This document shows positions 4,729 to 15,468 of a stretch of 64,000 bases of DNA, one piece after another. Position numbers and translations under genes: made by a program. The DNA lies in contig DIKK01000022.1 in assembly GCA_002423605.1 (NCBI GenBank), forward strand, positions 34,882 through 98,881, in the 5' to 3' direction. Every line of letters begins with the position of its first letter. Position 1 is the stretch's first letter. The DNA comes from Dehalococcoidia bacterium UBA5620. GTDB taxonomy: Bacteria > Chloroflexota > Dehalococcoidia > GIF9 > UBA5629. The notes below the pieces were generated by a model. The model was not told where the DNA came from, ran no database searches, and worked only from the letters and a program-made list of their open reading frames with translations.

Positions 4729-4766
4729 GTTACGAAACCGCTGCTCTACCACTGAGCTACGCTGGC
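4729..4766 (-). other. tRNA 5'-half-like fragment (acceptor strand, D arm and anticodon loop; reads as Thr-CGU-like). Not an intact tRNA.
   Basis: Minus strand GCCAGCG TA GCTC AGTGGTA GAGC A GCGGT TTCGTAA, then no complementary anticodon-stem 3' strand, no T arm and no acceptor 3' strand. Lies 12 nt downstream of the integrase-remnant stop. Confidence 0.55.
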
Positions 4767-4781
4767 GCTCACGATGCAGGG

Positions 4782-4967
4782 TTAAAGTTTTGACGCTCCC
4801 CTGACGCTCCGGGCTACCCCCGACGGCAGCACTTCATCAAGTAACGCCATGGCATCTTCCTGCATGCCAGATATTATATGTGAATATGTATCCATGGTAA
4901 AGGCTACGCTGGCATGTCCCAGAGCCTCAGAAATCACCTTGGGCTTGGCTCCCACATGGAGTCCCAA
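4782..4967 (-). pseudogene. Tyrosine recombinase (phage-integrase family) C-terminal remnant
   Basis: ...KPKVISEALGHASVAFTMDTYSHIISGMQEDAMALLDEVLPSGVARSVRGASKL*. Carries the catalytic-Tyr box. Only about 60 aa; the upstream part is non-coding. Confidence 0.75.
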
Positions 4968-5250
4968 GTAATGGGAAACTATGCAGACCCGTCAGACCCT
5001 GCAGGTATGAATTTATAATCCTGGTGTGTGATGCAGCCCATTATTATTTTATTGCTATTGTCGCCATGTTTGAGACCCGGTGGGGGTCGCAGGAATCATC
5101 CGCATCCGTGGCATTATTGGAATACTGGATGCAGTCTGTGTGTGTTGCGGCCTGCTGTTTGAGCGTCAGCCGAGCGTCCGTGTATTTGGTCGTCAGGATG
5201 GACAGCGGGTTGGGAGACCGCCGTCCACTATACATCTCAATGCCCAGATT
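4968..5250. repeat. R3 conserved non-coding block, copy 1 of 2
   Basis: About 85% identical over ~250 nt to 11160-11400 (cagcccattatt.ttttattgc...ccatgtttgagacccggtgggggt.gcagga...). No convincing protein in any frame. Confidence 0.5.
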
Positions 5251-6201: not shown

Positions 6202-6468
6202 AATTGATAATCCGCTTCAGCACCTGACCTGCTTCCCAATACTCATACCATCTCTTAAGTCACTCCCACAAGCACTTAGGCATGCCAATAAACTGATTGG
6301 CATGCCCCCCGTGCTAGCTATAACATGCAGGGAAGGATCCGGGTTTGTTATTTAACCTATCATTGTTTATGCCGTTATCTCCAATGTTTTAGACCCACCC
6401 CCATATCTCCCATCTTCCCCTTCATCTTAGCTTTCCAATTTCCCCTGGATGGTTTACGATTTTCAGCA

Positions 6469-6651
6469 ATGGATAAACGCACTGGGCGTATCTTCTACAC
6501 GTTCAAAGAGGCTATGAATCATCTGGCGGTTAGCAGGTACACGTTGCGCAAGCTGATGAAGTCAGGGCTACCAAGCCACAGGATAGGTAGAAAGATCGTG
6601 TTCCTGAAAGAAGACGTGGCCGACTGGATAAAAAGGCAGAGCCCTCAGTAA
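6469..6651 (+). CDS. Excisionase-like HTH protein, paralog 2 (60 aa)
   Basis: MDKRTGRIFYTFKEAMNHLAVSRYTLRKLMKSGLPSHRIGRKIVFLKEDVADWIKRQSPQ. Same leader as paralog 1. Confidence 0.7.
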   Translation: MDKRTGRIFYTFKEAMNHLAVSRYTLRKLMKSGLPSHRIGRKIVFLKEDVADWIKRQSPQ

Positions 6652-6772: not shown

Positions 6773-7933
6773 TTATTCGAACTTAAAGCCCTTATTCTTG
6801 AAAACTATCAAACAGGCATCCACTACATCGGCGTCGTAGAGTCTACCTCTGTTTTGTGAAATCTCCTCCAGTGCCTTATCTATGCCTAGCGCTGGGCGGT
6901 AAGGACGGTGAGAAGACATGGCCTCAACCACATCGGCAACAGCCAAGATTCTAGCCTCTAGGGAAATGTCTTCTCCAGAAAGACCGTTAGGATAGCCAGA
7001 ACCATTCAGCTTTTCATGGTGTTGGAGTATCGCCTGGGCAACTGGCCAAGGGAAATTTACCCCTTTCAGTATATCATGAGCGACTTGTGGATGAGTCTGA
7101 ATAATACCGAGTTCATGATTGCCTAACTTACCAGGTTTGCTCAAAATTTCGGATGGCACAGCTACTTTCCCAATGTCGTGGATGAGCCCTATAATACGTA
7201 TTCCCTCAATCTGGTCTTCTGAAAGACCCACCTCAGTGGCAATAGCACAAGAGAGCCGAGCTACTCGCTTTTGGTGAGATGCAGTATAGGGATCCCTGCT
7301 CTCACATAGGATTATTATGGAGTTAACGGTTTCACTAAACGTCACTCGTGAACTATCGAAATCTTGTAGAATTCCTGTTTCCCGTTTTGTTAGCCCTACT
7401 ACAGTAGCTGAGCGTCCTTCCATCTTGACAGAGAACTCAACCTTTCCATTAGTAATAACATTTCTGTCTTTGGCAGTAAAGAGCTTAATAGCTATATTAT
7501 CAGCCAGTTGCAGTTTATAAGTCTGTCCTTTATAAGCTTTGAACATCAGGAAAAACCATAGGAATAAGGTTAAGGCAATCACAATCCAGTACAAGACGAC
7601 TAGGAACCAATAGAGAGTATCATTGGCGATTTTAACTAAGCTCAGAACTATAATCGGCACGGTGAGTATTCCAAAGGTTACAATTGATTGACGAGCGTGG
7701 AAGCGAACGAAGCTATCTTCTCTCTTTATAATTAGCAGAATTATTCCAGATATCCAGCCAAGTGAATAGCAGAGAAGTCCAGCAATATTAGGTCGCAGGT
7801 AGGTAACAGCAGTTATATACCATACTCTTGTCTTACAGATCGCCACTTTACTGTTACGGTAAAGCTCTTTAATGTAATCGACTGCCTTTGTAACTATAAC
7901 GTTCACTGAATATCGCATCTCTCTAATTTGCAT
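6773..7933 (-). CDS. Membrane-anchored HD-GYP domain protein (predicted c-di-GMP phosphodiesterase)
   Basis: N-terminal TM helices. HD domain HDIGKVAVP ... HHEKLNGSGYP (HD-GYP signature). Confidence 0.75.
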   Translation of the reverse strand: MQIREMRYSVNVIVTKAVDYIKELYRNSKVAICKTRVWYITAVTYLRPNIAGLLCYSLGWISGIILLIIKREDSFVRFHARQSIVTFGILTVPIIVLSLVKIANDTLYWFLVVLYWIVIALTLFLWFFLMFKAYKGQTYKLQLADNIAIKLFTAKDRNVITNGKVEFSVKMEGRSATVVGLTKRETGILQDFDSSRVTFSETVNSIIILCESRDPYTASHQKRVARLSCAIATEVGLSEDQIEGIRIIGLIHDIGKVAVPSEILSKPGKLGNHELGIIQTHPQVAHDILKGVNFPWPVAQAILQHHEKLNGSGYPNGLSGEDISLEARILAVADVVEAMSSHRPYRPALGIDKALEEISQNRGRLYDADVVDACLIVFKNKGFKFE

Positions 7934-8013
7934 TATTATCCCATGCGCACTAAGCTGTCCCCAAGTATTTATACCACTTCCTAAGTTAGTCGTGCAAGAG
8001 ATTGAACTTACCC

Positions 8014-8065
8014 TATTTGGACGCTTTCCACGCCGCTCCCCGGCGGTGGTACGAACTGTGGCGAT
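8014..8065. repeat. R2 repeat copy
   Basis: tatttggacgctttccacgccgctccccggcggtggtacgaactgtggcga. Confidence 0.5.
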
Positions 8066-8147
8066 ATATGGTAACCCGTATATAAGACCAATACAGGGCT
8101 ATATCAAACAATATCTAACAGGATAGGATTGTATGTCTGGCTCCTCG

Positions 8148-8184
8148 TTACGAAACCGCTGCTCTACCACTGAGCTACGCTGGC
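8148..8184 (-). other. tRNA 5'-half-like fragment, copy 2
   Basis: Identical core to copy 1: GCCAGCGTAGCTCAGTGGTAGAGCAGCGGTTTCGTAA. Confidence 0.55.
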
Positions 8185-8199
8185 CCGCACGATGCGGGG

Positions 8200-8385
8200 T
8201 TAAAGTTTTGACGCTCCCCTGCCGCTCCGAGCTACCCCCGACGGCAGCACCTCATCAAGCAACGCCATGGCATCTTCCTGCAGCCCCGATATTATATGCG
8301 AGTAGACATCCATTGTAAAAGCTACGCTAGAATGTCCTAGGGCTTCTGAAATGACTTTAGGCTTTGCCCTACGCATCAAGGTCAC
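8200..8385 (-). pseudogene. Tyrosine recombinase C-terminal remnant
   Basis: MTLMRRAKPKVISEALGHSSVAFTMDVYSHIISGLQEDAMALLDEVLPSGVARSGRGASKL*. Confidence 0.75.
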
Positions 8386-8442
8386 TAGCGAAGATGTACC
8401 GTGGGTCGTGACTTATGCTCTCTAGGCTTGCCCGTCAGAGTG

Positions 8443-10665
8443 TCATTGACCATTTGATTCTGCAGTTCCTCTACTATAGCCTTCTTCTGCTAGCTTCTCC
8501 ATGATGCGGGCGGCTCTAGGGTAGCCGATACGTAGACGGCGCTGCAAAAAGGAACTTGAGATGTTTTTATGTTCTTGGGCTAACTGTCTGGCAGCTTCCA
8601 GCATTGCGTCTTCGCCGTTTTTTTCGGTTGAAGCAAGTTCACTCATCTCCTCGAATCTGAGTGGTTTCATCTCGGGTCTTTTTTGATTACCCCAGAACGA
8701 TACTATCCTCTCTATTTCAGCATCGGAGATAAAAGTCCCCTGAAGACGTTTTGGTTTGCTGGCATCTGTGGGCATATAAAGCATATCGCCTCTGCCCAGC
8801 AGCTTTTCAGCTCCAGCAGCATCAAGGATGGTTCTTGAGTCCACCTGTGAAGTGAGCGCAAAACTTATACGTGTTGGGAAGTTAGCTTTGATGAGACCGG
8901 TGACCACGTCGACAGACGGACGCTGGGTCGCTACGACCATATGGATACCGGTAGCCCGGGCTAGTTGAGCTAAACGGCAAAGAGTATGCTCCACCTCGTC
9001 GAAAGCTGCCATCATCAGGTCAGCTAGCTCGTCGATAACCACCACTATATAGGGCATTGTGTCTCCGTAATGTCGATTTGTGTTGTAGCTATCGATGTTA
9101 CGTGCGCCGGCCCGGGCGAACTTGTTATAGCGGTTGTCCATCTCCTGGTTAAGCCAACGTAACGCCAGGATTGCTTTATCAGAATCTACAACCACAGGAG
9201 CTGCCAGATGAGGCAGGCTATTAAAATTAACCAGCTCCACGCGTTTTGGATCAATCATAATGCACTGGACATCATCGGGGGTATTGTGGATAAGAAGGCA
9301 GCAGATGATCGAGTTGAGACAGGCGGTCTTACCACTGCCGGTGGCTCCAGCAATAAGCAGATGGGGCATTCTATCCAGATAGCCAGCTACTGTTTCTCCT
9401 CCAGCTCCCTTGCCCAAAGCCAGAGCCAGTTTTGATTTGGCATGCGCTTTTTGAAAGGCGGAGCTCTCAATTACGCCCCGCAGATTGACCAAACTAAAGG
9501 TAGTATTTGGTACCTCGATGCCTACCACTGATTTTCCTGGCACTGGAGCTTCGATTCTGATGCTTGGCGCAGCCAGTGCCAGAGCTAGGTCGTTAGCCAG
9601 GGCGCTAATACGGTCAACTTTAACTCTAGTTTTTGACACCTCCTCCAGGCGGGTTATATCATTGCCAAATTCATCGCGCTCTCGGATTTTTTTGTATTTG
9701 CGGTCCCATCCAGGCTCGACTCCGAACTGGGTTACGGTAGGGCCGACATTGATCTGGACTACTTTAGCCTCAACGCCGTAGCTGTTTATAGCTTCTTCGA
9801 TGAGCTGTGCACGCTTCTCAACATCACTCTGGTTTAGCTCTATTTCCGTGGGCTTATTCAGGATATTTACCGGGGGTAAGCACCAGCCACCGGTGGTAAA
9901 TATCGATTGGTATTTTCTTGGCTCCCATGACTCGGGAGCAGGTACTTTGCGTGTTGGTGGAGGGGTGACAAAAGGAGGTTCTGTGTTGGTCTGTTTTTCC
10001 TCGGGAACGTGCATCTCTGTTTTTAGAGGCGTGACACTAATGACTTCTGTAACCAGCTGTATTTCCCTGGGAGCTAGGGCTGCCAGTGCTGCTGCGGGTA
10101 TGATACTAAGGGCTTGCATAACTACCTGTATTTCCTTTGGGGAAGGCACTGCCGGTATTGCTGGGGGTATGATGCTAATGGCTTGTGAAACAGGTTGTTC
10201 TTCCTCGATAGCAGGTGCTTCGGCTGCAGGTTGAGGCGTGGCGATGATGTCTTGCATAGCTGGTTGCTCTTCCTCAGGAGCAGGCACTTCGTCTGTTGTT
10301 GGAGATGCACTACTGCGGGCTTGTGAAACAGGTTGTTCTTCCTCGGTAGCAGGTACTTCAGCTGCAGGTTGAGGCGTGATACTAGGGGTCTGCGTAACTG
10401 GCTGATTTTCCTCGACATTGGAAAGTCCGAAGAATTTTGTTACCGGGTCAGGTTTGGCTTTAGGCGGCCGATGGCCGGTGACACTTTGCGGTGTTGGTGT
10501 AGTTGATGGTCTGGTTGGTTGTGGCTTGTGAGGTTTCTGCTGCTGTTGTTCCGCTCGATGCTTGTTCCCAAAAAGTAAGCCACAACTCGGGCAGCGACCA
10601 GATGCCTTATTTGTCTTGATACCACATCGCGGGCAATCGTTAAGGTGGTTTGTAGCGTTGTCCAT
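8443..10665 (-). CDS. ftsK: FtsK/SpoIIIE-family DNA translocase with an N-terminal C4 zinc ribbon, no TM domain, and a long Pro/Glu-rich repeat linker
   Basis: CPRCG...CPSCG at the N-terminus. Walker A GATGSGKT, Walker B VVVIDELADL. C-terminal gamma-like winged helix (SSFLQRRLRIGYPRAARIMEKLAEEGY). Confidence 0.85.
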   Translation of the reverse strand: MDNATNHLNDCPRCGIKTNKASGRCPSCGLLFGNKHRAEQQQQKPHKPQPTRPSTTPTPQSVTGHRPPKAKPDPVTKFFGLSNVEENQPVTQTPSITPQPAAEVPATEEEQPVSQARSSASPTTDEVPAPEEEQPAMQDIIATPQPAAEAPAIEEEQPVSQAISIIPPAIPAVPSPKEIQVVMQALSIIPAAALAALAPREIQLVTEVISVTPLKTEMHVPEEKQTNTEPPFVTPPPTRKVPAPESWEPRKYQSIFTTGGWCLPPVNILNKPTEIELNQSDVEKRAQLIEEAINSYGVEAKVVQINVGPTVTQFGVEPGWDRKYKKIRERDEFGNDITRLEEVSKTRVKVDRISALANDLALALAAPSIRIEAPVPGKSVVGIEVPNTTFSLVNLRGVIESSAFQKAHAKSKLALALGKGAGGETVAGYLDRMPHLLIAGATGSGKTACLNSIICCLLIHNTPDDVQCIMIDPKRVELVNFNSLPHLAAPVVVDSDKAILALRWLNQEMDNRYNKFARAGARNIDSYNTNRHYGDTMPYIVVVIDELADLMMAAFDEVEHTLCRLAQLARATGIHMVVATQRPSVDVVTGLIKANFPTRISFALTSQVDSRTILDAAGAEKLLGRGDMLYMPTDASKPKRLQGTFISDAEIERIVSFWGNQKRPEMKPLRFEEMSELASTEKNGEDAMLEAARQLAQEHKNISSSFLQRRLRIGYPRAARIMEKLAEEGYSRGTAESNGQ
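10060..10420. repeat. Roughly 141-bp tandem DNA repeat, about 2.5 copies, encoding the FtsK linker repeats
   Basis: gcttgtgaaacaggttgttcttcctcg.tagcaggt.cttc.gctgcaggttgaggcgtg recurs at about 10178 and about 10319. Confidence 0.6.
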
Positions 10666-10907
10666 ATGGGATGGCTGTGGTGCCTTCTTTACGGCAGCCT
10701 TCTTCCTATAGCTTTTCCATGATTCTGGTGAAATGCATCAAATATTTGTACCACTTTTTGAGTTAGTCCTGCAAATATAATAGCCTAAGGAGCGAGTTAT
10801 CTTAGTTAGCATTCTTTAGTGCATGCCACTGTCTTTAACGATTCTCTGCCATTAAGGTTTAGTAGTGTTTTGTATTGTTACATAATTTGGGCTGTTGATG
10901 AGAGTAT

Positions 10908-10942
10908 CGCGAACCGCTGCTCTACCACTGAGCTACGCTGGC
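10908..10942 (-). other. tRNA 5'-half-like fragment, copy 3 (ends in the anticodon-loop region)
   Basis: GCCAGCGTAGCTCAGTGGTAGAGCAGCGGTTCG, then divergent. Confidence 0.5.
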
Positions 10943-10957
10943 ATGCACGATGCGGGG

Positions 10958-11179
10958 TTAAAGTTTTGACGCTCCCCTGCCGCTCCAGTCTACCCCCGGC
11001 GGCAGCACCTCATCAAGGAGCGAAATTGCATCTTCCTGCATCCCCGATATTATATGCGAATAGGTGTCCATGGTAAAGGCTACGCTGGCATGTCCCGGAG
11101 CCTCGGAAATGACCCTGGGCTTTGCTCCCACATGGAGTCCCAAGTAATGGGAAACTATGTAGACCCTGCAGGTATGCAT
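10958..11179 (-). pseudogene. Tyrosine recombinase C-terminal remnant
   Basis: ...IVSHYLGLHVGAKPRVISEAPGHASVAFTMDTYSHIISGMQEDAISLLDEVLPPGVDWSGRGASKL*. Confidence 0.7.
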
Positions 11180-11400
11180 CTATGCTCCGGGTTTGTGTTT
11201 CAGCCCATTATTGTTTTATTGCCATGTTTGAGACCCGGTGGGGGTAGCAGGAAACATCCTCACCTATGGCATTATTTGAATACTGGACGCGGTCTGTCGG
11301 TGTGTGTGTTGCGACCTGCTGTCCGAGCGTCAACCGAGCGTCAGGATATGTGGCTGTCAGGATAGACAGCGGATCAGCAGACCGCCGCTCAATATGCTGA
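11160..11400. repeat. R3 conserved non-coding block, copy 2
   Basis: See 4968-5250. Confidence 0.5.
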
Positions 11401-11786
11401 CGTTAATAACAGGTATAACATTAAGACCATTATCTGAAGCAGGCAGAATACAATACGGTATGACCTAATAGTGCACTTAGATATCGGCCTCCTGCTCTGG
11501 AAGCTGTATCGGTAGCATCTCCAACTCAAGAGGTGATACACTTCTTTGGGACAGGCCTAAGTAAATAATTCCGCTATAGTGAATCATTTTACGGGGCTAT
11601 CAGGACTCATCACTGGATATCGCTGACAGCACACCGGCATAGGTATTCATACTAGGCATTGAAAGAATAAATAAAGTATTGTAGAATTATGATGTAAGCG
11701 CAATTGAACCTATTCTTGGTGCAACCATTTTACTGGTCTAAGAATGTGTGTTATCTTATTTCTGGGTGTAAGATATTTAGTGGTAG

Positions 11787-13127
11787 ATGACGTTGAAACC
11801 TAGAGGACTGTTCGTAAAAAAGCAAGAAGCACCACTTCAACAGATTGCGGAACTTCCTATCCGTGAAGGTCTCCTGAATTATTTCGATGATCTTCCTATT
11901 GGCATAAATACCGTGGATATCCTGGGCAATTTTACCTATGTTAACAAGAGATTTCTGGAAGTATCAGGTTATTCCAAAGAGGAAGTTATTGGAAAGAACG
12001 GGTTAAAAATTGGCTTGTTTCCCCCAGATAGCTTAAAACGCTTAGCCAAAAGGATGCGGGCTAGGTTATCTGGAAAACCCTCGCAATATTTGGAGCTTCA
12101 GTTCAAATGCAAGGATGGCAGGTTGATCTGGGTAGAGCTTGAAGCTAGGTTGCTCAAAAATCATGGTTTTCCAATCGGCTTTCAAATTACTTCAAGGGAC
12201 ATCACCTATCGTAAGCAAGCTGAGGAGATGCTTGCCGACGAAGCGAACCGATGGCGTATGCTAATGCAACAGTCCAGAGACGGGATAGTTATCATCGATG
12301 AGGACGGCAAGGTGCATGAGGCAAACCAGCGTTTTGCCGAGATGCTCGGATATTCTCCCGATGAAGTCAGCCAGCTATACTTATGGGATTGGGATACTCA
12401 ATATACACGTGAGCAACTGCTCGAGATGGTGCGGACTGTTAGCGAGGCGGGCGACCATTTCGAGACATACCACCGTCGTAAGGACGGTACTACTATTGAT
12501 GTTGAAATCAGCAGCAATGGGGCTATGTTTGCAGGACATAAACTGATTTTCTGCGTGTGTCGTGATATAAGCGAACGCAAGAAGGCAGACGAGGCTATAA
12601 AGAGAGTTAATAAGCAGTTAATGGAATCGTCCAACCATGATATTATGACCGGCTTGCCAAATAGAAGGTTATTATATGAACATTTTGACATAGCACTGGC
12701 GAGTGCACAGCGAAACAAGAAAATACTGGCAACAATATCCCTCGATCTTGACAAATTCAAGGCTATAAATGACGCATTTGGTCATGACGTAGGAGATAAG
12801 CTATTAGTTGCCGCTGCAGACCGGATGACCAGCATTTTACGTAAGACTGATACAGTTGCCCGCATGGGCGGAGATGAATTTGTTGTGCTTTTATGGGATC
12901 TTGACCATAAAAGCACAACAGTTAAAGTTGCACAAAAAATATTAGAGGGGTTCCGACAACCGTTCAGTGTTGATGGTCACACGCTTAATAATACTGTCAG
13001 TGTGGGCGTCGCAATATATCCGGAAAATGGCAGTAACATCGAAGAATTGCTGAAGAGTTCCGATAAATCACTGTATCGAGTAAAAGAAAGTGGCAGGAAT
13101 AATTATCAATTGTCTGCTAGCAGCTAA
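11787..13127 (+). CDS. PAS-PAS-GGDEF diguanylate cyclase
   Basis: Two PAS blocks followed by GGDEF (RMGGDEFVVLL). The last ~450 nt are about 90% identical, in inverted orientation, to the 3' end of the 15469-18423 gene. Confidence 0.85.
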   Translation: MTLKPRGLFVKKQEAPLQQIAELPIREGLLNYFDDLPIGINTVDILGNFTYVNKRFLEVSGYSKEEVIGKNGLKIGLFPPDSLKRLAKRMRARLSGKPSQYLELQFKCKDGRLIWVELEARLLKNHGFPIGFQITSRDITYRKQAEEMLADEANRWRMLMQQSRDGIVIIDEDGKVHEANQRFAEMLGYSPDEVSQLYLWDWDTQYTREQLLEMVRTVSEAGDHFETYHRRKDGTTIDVEISSNGAMFAGHKLIFCVCRDISERKKADEAIKRVNKQLMESSNHDIMTGLPNRRLLYEHFDIALASAQRNKKILATISLDLDKFKAINDAFGHDVGDKLLVAAADRMTSILRKTDTVARMGGDEFVVLLWDLDHKSTTVKVAQKILEGFRQPFSVDGHTLNNTVSVGVAIYPENGSNIEELLKSSDKSLYRVKESGRNNYQLSASS

Positions 13128-13350
13128 TTCCGTAATTAAACGCAAAAGTAATCCCTTCTGCCATATCCGAGCAGATAACCTGTTTTACGCAGCGCTAGCT
13201 GGCTGTAACATGCATAGCTAAATCCGTGTTTGTCATTTGACCTGTCGTTCTTTATGCCGCCATCTCCCACGTTTTAGACCCCTGTATACCCCACCTTGCT
13301 ATTCATCTCAGCTTTCCAAATTTCCCCCGGATGGTTTACGATTTTCAGCA

Positions 13351-13523
13351 ATGGACAAGCGCACCGAACGGATCTTCTACACGTTCACAGAAGCTATGAA
13401 TCATTTGGCAGTCAGCAGGTACACGCTGCGCAAGCTGATGAAGTCAGGGCTACCGAGCCACAGATAGGTATAAAGATCGTGTTCCTTAAGGACGATGTGG
13501 CTGAGTGGATAAAGAGGCACTAG
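13351..13523 (+). pseudogene. Excisionase-like HTH gene, paralog 3, disrupted
   Basis: MDKRTERIFYTFTEAMNHLAVSRYTLRKLMKSGLPSHR* (TAG), then out of frame IGIKIVFLKDDVAEWIKRH. Confidence 0.6.
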
Positions 13524-13591
13524 ATTTTGTCACTGAAGGCTGGAGGCGAGCAGAGCAGTGATACTCCCTGAGTCGATGATTAAGATATAGT

Positions 13592-13879
13592 TTATGGGCG
13601 GTAAGTAGTCTCGGTACGGCGGGTTATCTGGATTATAAGCACCAACTTCTGAGAATCGTACACTTCGTAGACAACTCTGTAGTTGCCGGCTCTTATTCTA
13701 TAGGCTGCCTCGGCGCCTTTGATTTTTCTGACGCCATGGGGACGTGGTTCAACGGCTAAGGCTACAATGGAGAAGCTTAGACGCTCGAAATCGTGGAGTC
13801 GTATTCGGCCTTTCAGTTTTTGTAGGTCACGATCAGCGGCAGGTGATACTTCGATGCGGTACGCTTTTGGCTTGTTCAT
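13592..13879 (-). CDS. RelE/ParE-family toxin
   Basis: 95 aa, YRIEVSPAADRDLQKL...YRIRAGNYRVVYEV. Immediately downstream of a small RHH-like gene. Confidence 0.7.
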   Translation of the reverse strand: MNKPKAYRIEVSPAADRDLQKLKGRIRLHDFERLSFSIVALAVEPRPHGVRKIKGAEAAYRIRAGNYRVVYEVYDSQKLVLIIQITRRTETTYRP

Positions 13880-13887
13880 TGGCTGAA

Positions 13888-14148
13888 TTACGTTTTGCTT
13901 TCACGTTTGGTCAGCGCCTCTGTCATCTCCCTCTCTACCTCAGCCCAGGGACGACCACCTTTTTCCTCCCATTCAGCTCGGGCAGCATCGATTACAGGCA
14001 ATAGCTCAGCATCCTCCCTGTTTTCCAGCCACTCAAGTACAGCTTCACTGACTATATCGCTGGCAGGCTTGCGCCGCCTCACGGCCTCTACTTTCAGATT
14101 GGTGTAGAGGTCATCATCGTGAAAGACTACGGTCATTCTTCTGCTCAT
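13888..14148 (-). CDS. RHH/CopG-type antitoxin (start taken at MSRRM; the track ORF is longer)
   Basis: MTVVFHDDDLYTNLKVEAVRRRKPASDIVSEAVLEWLE. Confidence 0.55.
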   Translation of the reverse strand: MSRRMTVVFHDDDLYTNLKVEAVRRRKPASDIVSEAVLEWLENREDAELLPVIDAARAEWEEKGGRPWAEVEREMTEALTKRESKT

Positions 14149-14232
14149 CGGTATCCTCCATTCAAGCGTATAGGCATAAAAGCATACACGTGCATGTATT
14201 GTATCAATAGATGTTTTGGCAGTCAACTTCTA

Positions 14233-14502
14233 TCAGTCATATGTAGGTGGACTCGCCTCCTCCTTTGACATTTCCATGCCGCTCCGGGCCACCCCCGACG
14301 GCAGCACCTCATCTAATAGCGCCATGGCATCTTCCTGCATGCTATGATAGACGTCCATCGTAAAGGCAACGGAGGCATGCCTCAGGGCCTCGGAAATCAC
14401 CTTGGGCATTGATACCGAAGTGCGTGTTATAGATTTACGATACGATAACATTATGGGAATAGCCCATAATGTACTTGACAAAATATATAGTGTGCTGTAC
14501 AC
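14233..14502 (-). pseudogene. Tyrosine recombinase C-terminal remnant (diverged 3' tail, no adjacent tRNA-like piece)
   Basis: ...MPKVISEALRHASVAFTMDVYHSMQEDAMALLDEVLPSGVARSG.... Confidence 0.6.
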
Positions 14503-15227: not shown

Positions 15228-15245
15228 CCACTGAGCTACGCTGGC
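15228..15245 (-). other. Truncated tRNA-like fragment (acceptor 5' strand plus start of D arm only)
   Basis: GCCAGCGTAGCTCAGTGG, then unrelated sequence. Confidence 0.4.
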
Positions 15246-15260
15246 ACGCACGATGCGTGG

Positions 15261-15420
15261 TTAAAGATTTGACGCTCCCCCTGCCGCTCCGTGCTACCCC
15301 CGACGGCAGCATCTCATCAAGGAGCGACATCGCATCTTCCTGCATGCTATGAGTAGACGTCCATTGTAAAAGCAGCTGAGCTATGTCCTAGCGCCTCCGA
15401 TATTACTTTAGGCTTTGCGT
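15261..15420 (-). pseudogene. Tyrosine recombinase C-terminal remnant, copy 5
   Basis: Complement encodes ...KPKVISEALGHSSAAFTMDVYSHSMQEDAMSLLDEM...; below the ORF-track size cutoff. Confidence 0.55.
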
Positions 15421-15468
15421 CTCTTAATGGCATATGACTGGCAAAGGTATTCTTAGGCTCTTTGATAA

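Follow-up and report, generated by a model that had tools for sequence, protein, structure and literature searches.

Domain architecture at the locus

The stretch of DNA analysed here (hereafter the window) comprises 64,000 nucleotides of contig DIKK01000022.1, positions 34,882 to 98,881, from the genome of the Chloroflexota member Dehalococcoidia bacterium UBA5620. On its minus strand, at positions 8443–10665, lies a complete coding sequence for a protein of 740 amino acids that begins with an ATG codon. The predicted product is a member of the FtsK family in which a C4 zinc ribbon (ZR) stands in place of the membrane domain, and we refer to the gene as ZR-ftsK and to its product as ZR-FtsK. 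A sequence-only reading of the locus had already recognized this substitution, and had offered two explanations for it, namely that the protein is the cell's own FtsK adapted to a wall-less or unusual divisome, or that it is a TraB-like DNA-transfer ATPase brought in by a mobile element. A protein identical to ZR-FtsK (P0001) is encoded on two further metagenome contigs of the Joint Genome Institute (JGI). The features of the gene, from the whole coding sequence and then from the N terminus to the C terminus of the product, are as follows.

8443..10665, minus strand: coding sequence of ZR-FtsK, a putative zinc-ribbon FtsK paralogue (open reading frame, three FtsK Pfam domains, identity to P0001, and a ratio of nonsynonymous to synonymous substitution rates, dN/dS, of 0.07 in the motor)
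10579..10635, minus strand: predicted C4 zinc ribbon, residues 11–29, CPRCG-x9-CPSCG (conserved cysteines, weak Pfam match, AlphaFold2 (AF2) model, dN/dS 0.16)
10414..10563, minus strand: Gln/Pro-rich spacer and basic stretch, residues 35–84, ending ...RPPKAKPDPV... (alignment of ZR N termini)
9931..10413, minus strand: seven tandem 23-aa (69-bp) repeats, residues 85–245 (direct repeats at 69/138-bp spacing, in-register units)
9505..9879, minus strand: FtsK alpha domain, residues 263–387 (PF17854, E 1.1e-28)
8911..9483, minus strand: FtsK/SpoIIIE RecA-like ATPase (beta) domain, residues 395–585 (PF01580, E 9e-54)
8476..8613, minus strand: FtsK gamma domain, residues 685–730 (PF09397, E 8e-15, 54.8 bits; cut-off 30.6)

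All three motor domains exceeded their Pfam gathering scores, and the best matches to ZR-FtsK in the PDB were FtsK motor structures (2IUT, 2IUS and 2IUU; E ~1e-100). The Walker A motif (GATGSGKT, residues 440–447, window positions 9325–9348) and the Walker B motif (DELAD, residues 545–549), both of which had been called canonical from the sequence, were indeed invariant among 34 relatives, as was the QRP motif. ZR-FtsK thus has the alpha domain and the RecA-like beta domain, with its Walker A and B motifs and arginine-finger region, by which FtsK/SpoIIIE chromosomal DNA translocases are recognized. The gamma domain had been described as a gamma-like winged helix, a description that holds for its helices but not for its wing. 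In particular, it matched only profile positions 3–48 of 63 in PF09397 and aligned with residues 13–57 of 76 in the gamma domain of E. coli FtsK (2J5P); the three helices are present, the beta-wing is absent, and the protein ends 10 residues beyond helix 3. A stop directly behind helix 3 was common to all of the canonical (membrane-anchored) Dehalococcoidia relatives that we examined (for example P0002 and L005a).

The zinc ribbon at the N terminus has counterparts in seven homologues, in which its four Cys, two Pro and two Gly residues are invariant. The match of the window ribbon to the Pfam family Zn_ribbon_LapB was weak and below threshold (E 0.0085; 16.2 bits against 25.7); relatives that carry three ribbons exceeded the Pfam thresholds for DZR (PF12773) and Zn_Ribbon_1 (PF13240). 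In the AF2 model the predicted local distance difference test (pLDDT) score at the ribbon was ~78. The two conserved CxxC knuckles, together with recognition by the family models by way of the three-ribbon relatives, argue that the segment is a genuine zinc ribbon. Its knuckles are like the CPxCG-x9-CPxCG knuckles of DZR / zinc_ribbon_2-type ribbons (PF12773, PF13240 and PF13248), domains for which we know of no established function. Ribbons of the DZR / Zn_ribbon_3 type also head unrelated proteins in the genomes of relatives (L065, 5186–7144 and 7182–8882; L004, 5305–6126), examples being a DZR-fn3-AhpC/TSA redoxin and a protein with Zn_ribbon_3 and a tRNA_anti-like domain, and this lineage seems to have reused such a ribbon widely as an N-terminal module.

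Between the ribbon and the motor lies a linker of ~220 aa (residues 35–255; P 19%, A 11%, E 11%, Q 10%), rather than of ~330 aa as had been estimated. The tandem repeats that had been noted in it are real, although their period is not ~141 bp: there are seven 69-bp units with a super-period of 138 bp and the consensus EEEQPVSQAxSIxPPxxxEVPAP. The units are 63–81% identical, and one internal match of 61 bp has 95% identity at an offset of 138 bp. The units have diverged too far for Tandem Repeats Finder, which reported no array in this region. The pLDDT was mostly below 50 across the ~220 residues behind the ribbon, and the linker is therefore predicted to be disordered.

The linker also retains the mark of a membrane-anchored ancestor. 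The juxtamembrane linker of canonical relatives starts with SQRQPKVKPEPV or SQRPPKVKPEP, which is matched by the end of the spacer in ZR-FtsK (RPPKAKPDPV); when the two architectures are compared, the window protein continues behind its ribbon as ...RPPKAKPDPVTKFFGLSNVEENQPVTQTPSITPQPAAEVPAT, the canonical linker behind the fourth transmembrane (TM) helix as SQRQPKVKPEPVKREFEFAKAEEKEVVPQAPSFAPPKAAEPPAPEAWEPGKYQ. Moreover, when the repeat units were scored against the one unit in the canonical linker, five of the seven resembled it (z 3.4–7.0). Homology at these sites indicates that the membrane domain was swapped at its boundary and that a single linker unit was amplified. Expansion of the linker was recurrent and lineage-specific, in that each of several ZR-FtsK lineages (P0094, L005b, L004 and L063) has amplified repeats of its own; the linker reaches ~700 aa in P0094 and is built of ~35-aa units in L005b and of ELVELPAPEAKELLEPPP units in L004.

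The absence of a TM helix, which the sequence-only reading had also pointed out, was upheld. The sole hydrophobic 19-mer of ZR-FtsK (residues 179–197, IQVVMQALSIIPAAALAAL) contains a proline; its Kyte–Doolittle (KD) value is 1.93, and its additive Hessa sum, +4.3 kcal/mol, compares with sums of -4.1 to +2.4 for the four TM helices of canonical relatives. This stretch is the fifth repeat unit, whose counterpart in the closest relative is rich in Pro and Lys (ISVMPPKTPAVPAT). ZR-FtsK thus appears to have no convincing TM helix and to lack the polytopic, usually 4-TM, N-domain of FtsK/SpoIIIE proteins.

Relatives, descent and selection

The 120 best database hits of ZR-FtsK were FtsKs of Dehalococcoidia and other Chloroflexota, and in 108 of these the N-terminal part contains three or four segments of strong hydrophobicity. 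These canonical hits are 74–87% identical to the query, in the motor only, with the closest motors at 80–87%. In every case examined, the canonical ftsK lies directly downstream of the gene for RNase J, in the order UDG (the uracil-DNA glycosylase gene), RNase J, ftsK.

The zinc-ribbon architecture itself occurs in at least seven lineages (P0030; P0094, 1203 aa; P0107/L056; P0079/L004; L003/L064/L065; L063; and L005b), several members of which have three ribbons, that is, a DZR pair in addition to the conserved one. These numbers under-sample the size and distribution of the family, in that profile searches with the N terminus did not recover known members; a metagenome scan with the N-terminal alignment gave 4 loci. 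For P0107 (862 aa; L056, 297–3131), the called start probably truncates the gene, the stop-to-stop frame holding two further zinc ribbons upstream. ZR forms appear to be rare. A search seeded with P0030 covered the 150 closest representatives of clusters at 50% identity: not one had a zinc-ribbon N terminus (scored as a CxxC-x(6-20)-CxxC motif N-terminal of the motor), 144 of the 150 had TM segments, and the remaining representatives without TM segments mostly look like fragments.

One relative carries both types of gene. On the 267-kb contig CAVVVB010000016.1 (L005), the gene for RNase J, a 4-TM ftsK (L005a, 7374–9584, 731 aa) and a three-ribbon ZR-ftsK (L005b, 9698–12400) follow one another on one strand amid housekeeping genes; the product of L005b has 894 aa when counted from a GTG start, within a stop-to-stop frame of 900 codons. 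A protein of the ZR-FtsK type, without a TM helix, thus coexists in this genome with a membrane-anchored FtsK, which is the arrangement that characterizes SftA. The tandem occurrence of both genes in a related genome suggests that ZR-FtsK is an extra paralogue and not a replacement.

This arrangement bears directly on the possibility that ZR-FtsK is the only FtsK of its organism, remodelled in a group that lacks a peptidoglycan wall and has an unusual divisome. No second ftsK was found in the 64-kb window, and no canonical copy was listed for three ZR-bearing metagenome-assembled genomes, as would be expected of a sole FtsK, although the latter search used six exact peptide patterns only and could have missed a canonical gene. 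However, canonical 4-TM FtsKs dominate the clade, both types of ftsK lie on one contig in the relative just described, and both the rarity of ZR forms and their longer branches in the motor tree (see below) are at odds with such a role, long branches being expected of an accessory paralogue. We therefore consider it unlikely that ZR-FtsK serves as the organism's sole FtsK, and the proposal of a cell's FtsK adapted to a wall-less divisome is disfavoured.

To place the motor, a neighbour-joining tree with 500 bootstraps was built from 49 sequences over 483 columns. With one exception, the seven ZR motors formed a single clade (88% bootstrap) that lies inside the diversity of canonical FtsKs from the closest Dehalococcoidia, and within this clade of six the window motor paired with that of L003 (100% bootstrap). 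ZR motors sit on longer branches than canonical motors. The seventh ZR motor, that of L005b, grouped with its tandem neighbour L005a (84% bootstrap), and the N terminus of L005b is homologous to that of the ZR clade. This combination suggests gene conversion between the tandem L005a and L005b copies, although dS between them is 0.7.

Relative to the closest ZR relative (dS ~0.9), dN/dS was 0.07 in the motor, 0.16 in the ribbon and ~0.36–0.39 in the spacer and repeats. The low ratios, together with the invariance of the catalytic residues, indicate that the gene is functional and under purifying selection. The number of repeats varies between closely related strains, which answers the question of copy-number variation that had been raised for the repeat. 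In particular, a sister strain (P0124/L055; sample 3300000558) with 99.6–99.9% nucleotide identity carries one extra 138-bp double unit, giving nine repeat copies rather than the seven found here and a protein of 786 aa.

Integrase scars and the surrounding island

ZR-ftsK lies between two remnants of integrase genes. The scars that flank it had been noticed before, and both are real, but they are two of five in the window, and they carry tRNA fragments.

8154..8385, minus strand: integrase scar 2, a tyrosine recombinase 3' end of ~61 codons followed by a ~35–45-nt tRNA 5' half (phrog_1, E 4.9e-8)
10912..11179, minus strand: integrase scar 3, a tyrosine recombinase 3' end of ~73 codons followed by a tRNA 5'-half fragment (PHROG integrase, E 1e-4)

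Scar 2 sits 57 bp downstream of the ZR-ftsK stop codon and scar 3 ~245 bp upstream of the start, and the two are 87% identical over 214 bp. Their integrase parts (8200–8385 and 10958–11179) match the PHROG C-terminal region that bears the catalytic Tyr, and tblastn returned plasmid site-specific integrases; Pfam did not recognize these fragments of 61–73 aa, and PDB matches reached only E ~1. The tRNA 5' half behind the integrase fragments (~35–45 nt) reads GCCAGCGTAGCTCAGTGGTAGAGCAGCGGTT. The window contains no intact tRNA, no Rfam family and no full-length integrase of the scar type.

The five scars (4736–5012, 8154–8385, 10912–11179, 14263–14411 and 15228–15427) are direct repeats, 74–87% identical in pairwise blastn comparisons. 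Four of them consist of the last 55–76 codons of an integrase and a tRNA 5' half; in the fourth copy (14263–14411) only the integrase part was detected. The scars divide the island into modules of about 0.8–3 kb, one of which, 2.5 kb in length, has ZR-ftsK as its sole gene. An HTH_17 excisionase-like gene is present in three copies (83–91% identical), one per island module, at 2500–2755, 6313–6638 and 13198–13525. Two PAS-GGDEF genes, one inside the island (446 aa) and one at its edge (984 aa), are linked through their 3' GGDEF parts by a ~500-bp inverted duplication (12616–13114 versus 16031–15533, 83% identical). The island also holds a gene for an HD-GYP phosphodiesterase (6773–7933), and the cyclic-di-GMP genes appear to be island cargo. 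A pair encoding a ParE toxin and a ribbon-helix-helix (RHH) antitoxin lies at 13592–14226 and an adjacent pair encoding a Dam-type methyltransferase and an HNH protein at 643–2318, with Abi_C just outside the start of the window; all of these are typical island or defence cargo. Taken together, the island looks like an array of decayed integrative elements that accreted in tandem at a former tRNA site.

Such a setting raises the possibility that ZR-FtsK is a DNA-transfer or mobilization ATPase, either TraB-like or akin to the FtsK-like coupling proteins of integrative and conjugative elements (ICEs), that pumps the DNA of the surrounding element between cells. Soluble FtsK-like ATPases are typical of conjugation in actinomycetes, the gene is alone in a module bracketed by 87%-identical repeats of integrase and tRNA fragments, and the island holds HTH_17 excisionase-like, Prim-Pol primase, Abi and HNH/Dam methyltransferase genes. 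The properties of the protein point elsewhere. Its score against the NCBIfam model plasmid_TraB (NF041214) was 60.3 bits, the cut-off being 800; it has FtsK alpha and gamma domains and a motor 87% identical to chromosomal FtsK; and the tree places the ZR clade inside the chromosomal FtsKs. We found no viral-contig match to ZR-FtsK and no phage or plasmid relative above 60% identity, all such matches being to the motor only, so that viral contigs, phages and plasmids offer no close homologue.

The neighbourhoods of other ZR genes argue in the same direction. Mobile-element genes were found in none of the five that we examined (L065, L004, L056, P0094 and L054), among them that of the closest relative (89% motor identity). 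The ZR gene lies beside genes for seryl-tRNA synthetase, an FMN reductase and an acyl-CoA dehydrogenase in L065, near major facilitator superfamily (MFS), GyrI-like and haloacid dehalogenase (HAD) genes in L004, near D-Tyr deacylase and NAD genes in L056, and near peptidase S51 and HtrA in P0094 (JGI sample 3300075153). A tblastn comparison of the window's integrase fragments and island proteins with seven loci that carry zinc-ribbon relatives (L003, L004, L005, L056, L063, L065 and L066) detected no integrase fragment or HTH_17 gene; the only matches were weak PAS/GGDEF similarities (26–32% identity) in L004 and one unrelated open reading frame in L056. The location of ZR-ftsK between integrase scars in this genome is secondary, only this lineage sitting among scars, and the transfer-ATPase reading is largely refuted; we regard it as very unlikely.

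The same island brings to mind a defence-system ATPase (SspH/HerA-like) in a defence island or, alternatively, a decaying duplicate on its way to becoming a pseudogene. PADLOC SspH models did match the ATPase region (E 8e-59), and Abi_C, ParE and HNH/methyltransferase genes are present, but the match is limited to the terminal FtsK-like domain of the model (profile positions 1471–1763 of 1766) and no Ssp partner genes lie nearby. A pseudogene, for its part, would not be expected to show intact motifs and strong purifying selection, and neither idea fits a gene conserved in at least seven lineages, the five other neighbourhoods examined being free of mobile-element genes. We give hardly any credence to either. 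The TraB, defence-ATPase and pseudogene readings were accordingly rejected on the TraB score, the partial SspH match, purifying selection and the chromosomal contexts.

A probable soluble FtsK paralogue and its known counterparts

The explanation that we favour, and hold to be probable though by no means assured, is that ZR-FtsK is a lineage-specific soluble FtsK paralogue of one Dehalococcoidia subclade within the Chloroflexota, an independently evolved analogue of SftA. In this view ZR-ftsK would have started as a duplicate of the local membrane-anchored ftsK; the 4-TM N-domain would have been replaced, exactly at the end of the fourth TM helix, by one to three C4 zinc ribbons, and the short canonical linker, which has one 23-aa unit, would then have grown by amplification of that unit. 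Judging from the 87% identity to canonical motors, the alpha/beta motor probably works as a hexameric, ATP-driven pump that translocates double-stranded DNA. The gamma domain, which is nearly identical to the gamma domain of canonical FtsK, may read those polarity signals of the chromosome to which canonical FtsK responds. Carried on a long, flexible and acidic linker, the zinc ribbon could dock the motor to a partner, either a division-site component or the nucleoid, without membrane insertion. By analogy, ZR-FtsK might move chromosomal DNA ahead of membrane closure or without depending on it, leaving canonical 4-TM FtsK to act at the closing membrane, which would be the same split of labour as that between SftA and SpoIIIE in Bacillus subtilis.

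Several observations weigh against this explanation or parts of it. The fifth repeat unit is moderately hydrophobic, AF2 places short broken helices there (pLDDT 57–69), and the unit could conceivably contact the membrane peripherally in this particular strain. With a mean pLDDT of 53, the AF2 model of the full-length protein is of low quality and unsuited to fold searches, and we used it only for the ribbon, for disorder and for the missing long helix. With respect to a docking partner, profile searches with the N terminus gave only generic short zinc-ribbon proteins and missed even known members of the family. Because the gamma domain is without the wing that touches DNA (at KOPS, the FtsK-orienting polar sequences) in E. 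coli FtsK, sequence-directed translocation by ZR-FtsK is an assumption. Finally, neither a second ftsK nor RNase J is found within the 64-kb window, and the five close canonical proteins that we looked up as candidates for this genome's own ftsK all came from other samples. Tetranucleotide similarity did not discriminate among the canonical candidates.

More tentatively, one might go further and propose that Dehalococcoidia, which are without peptidoglycan, independently evolved a pair consisting of a membrane FtsK and a ribbon-targeted soluble FtsK, in which the 23-aa repeat linker, quick to gain and lose units, sets the reach of the motor, the ribbon is a divisome- or nucleoid-docking module, and the tandem copies undergo gene conversion. 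We think this larger picture possible, but would not yet wager on it as a whole.

If ZR-FtsK is indeed a second, independent soluble FtsK, then splitting DNA clearance between membrane-bound and soluble pumps would be a recurrent solution, realized here in a phylum whose envelope is atypical, and with a targeting domain unlike that of SftA. The abundant bacterial DZR / zinc_ribbon_2 domains would gain a concrete candidate role as a targeting module, and variation in repeat number would tune the length of the tether between strains that are 99.9% identical. There is also a consequence for annotation: ZR genes are now labelled 'DNA translocase FtsK', a name that, where a genome has two copies, conceals which of them encodes the divisome protein.

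Of the known systems, plasmid TraB of Streptomyces, an FtsK-like conjugative translocase of double-stranded DNA, shares the FtsK-like ATPase fold, and ZR-ftsK lies here amid mobile-element remnants; ZR-FtsK differs from it in its chromosomal FtsK descent, in the lack of a plasmid or ICE context in its relatives and in its score against the TraB model (60 bits versus 800). The TraB-like, element-borne ATPase of the sequence-only reading is disfavoured on these grounds, the neighbourhoods of the relatives being non-mobile. E. coli FtsK has an alpha/beta/gamma motor like that of ZR-FtsK (2IUS/2IUT, E ~1e-100), and in it a long, Pro/Gln-rich, repeat-containing linker joins the targeting domain to the motor; unlike E. 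coli FtsK, ZR-FtsK has no membrane domain and a gamma domain without the wing.

In the literature that we searched, only one soluble FtsK paralogue was described, SftA of B. subtilis, and no description of a zinc-ribbon FtsK was found. SftA belongs to the FtsK-like translocases, has no TM domain and is soluble; it is recruited to the septum and operates alongside membrane-bound SpoIIIE (PMC5357621). Like ZR-FtsK, SftA (YtpS/T) combines an FtsK-family motor and a gamma domain with the absence of TM helices, and exists beside a membrane-anchored paralogue, as does the zinc-ribbon protein of the relative that carries both genes. The two differ in origin, the ZR clade being nested in Dehalococcoidia FtsKs and not orthologous to Firmicutes SftA, and the zinc ribbon and long repeat linker are absent from the account of SftA in PMC5357621. 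A soluble FtsK paralogue as such is therefore already known, and it is the zinc-ribbon architecture that is new.

The nearest counterpart of ZR-FtsK is canonical Dehalococcoidia FtsK, with which it shares an 80–87% identical motor, the same truncated gamma domain, the start of the juxtamembrane linker and the 23-aa linker unit. Where the canonical protein has a 4-TM domain of ~190 aa, ZR-FtsK has a C4 ribbon and a spacer; its linker unit is amplified 7-fold, and its gene occupies a genomic location other than that of the RNase J-linked canonical ftsK.

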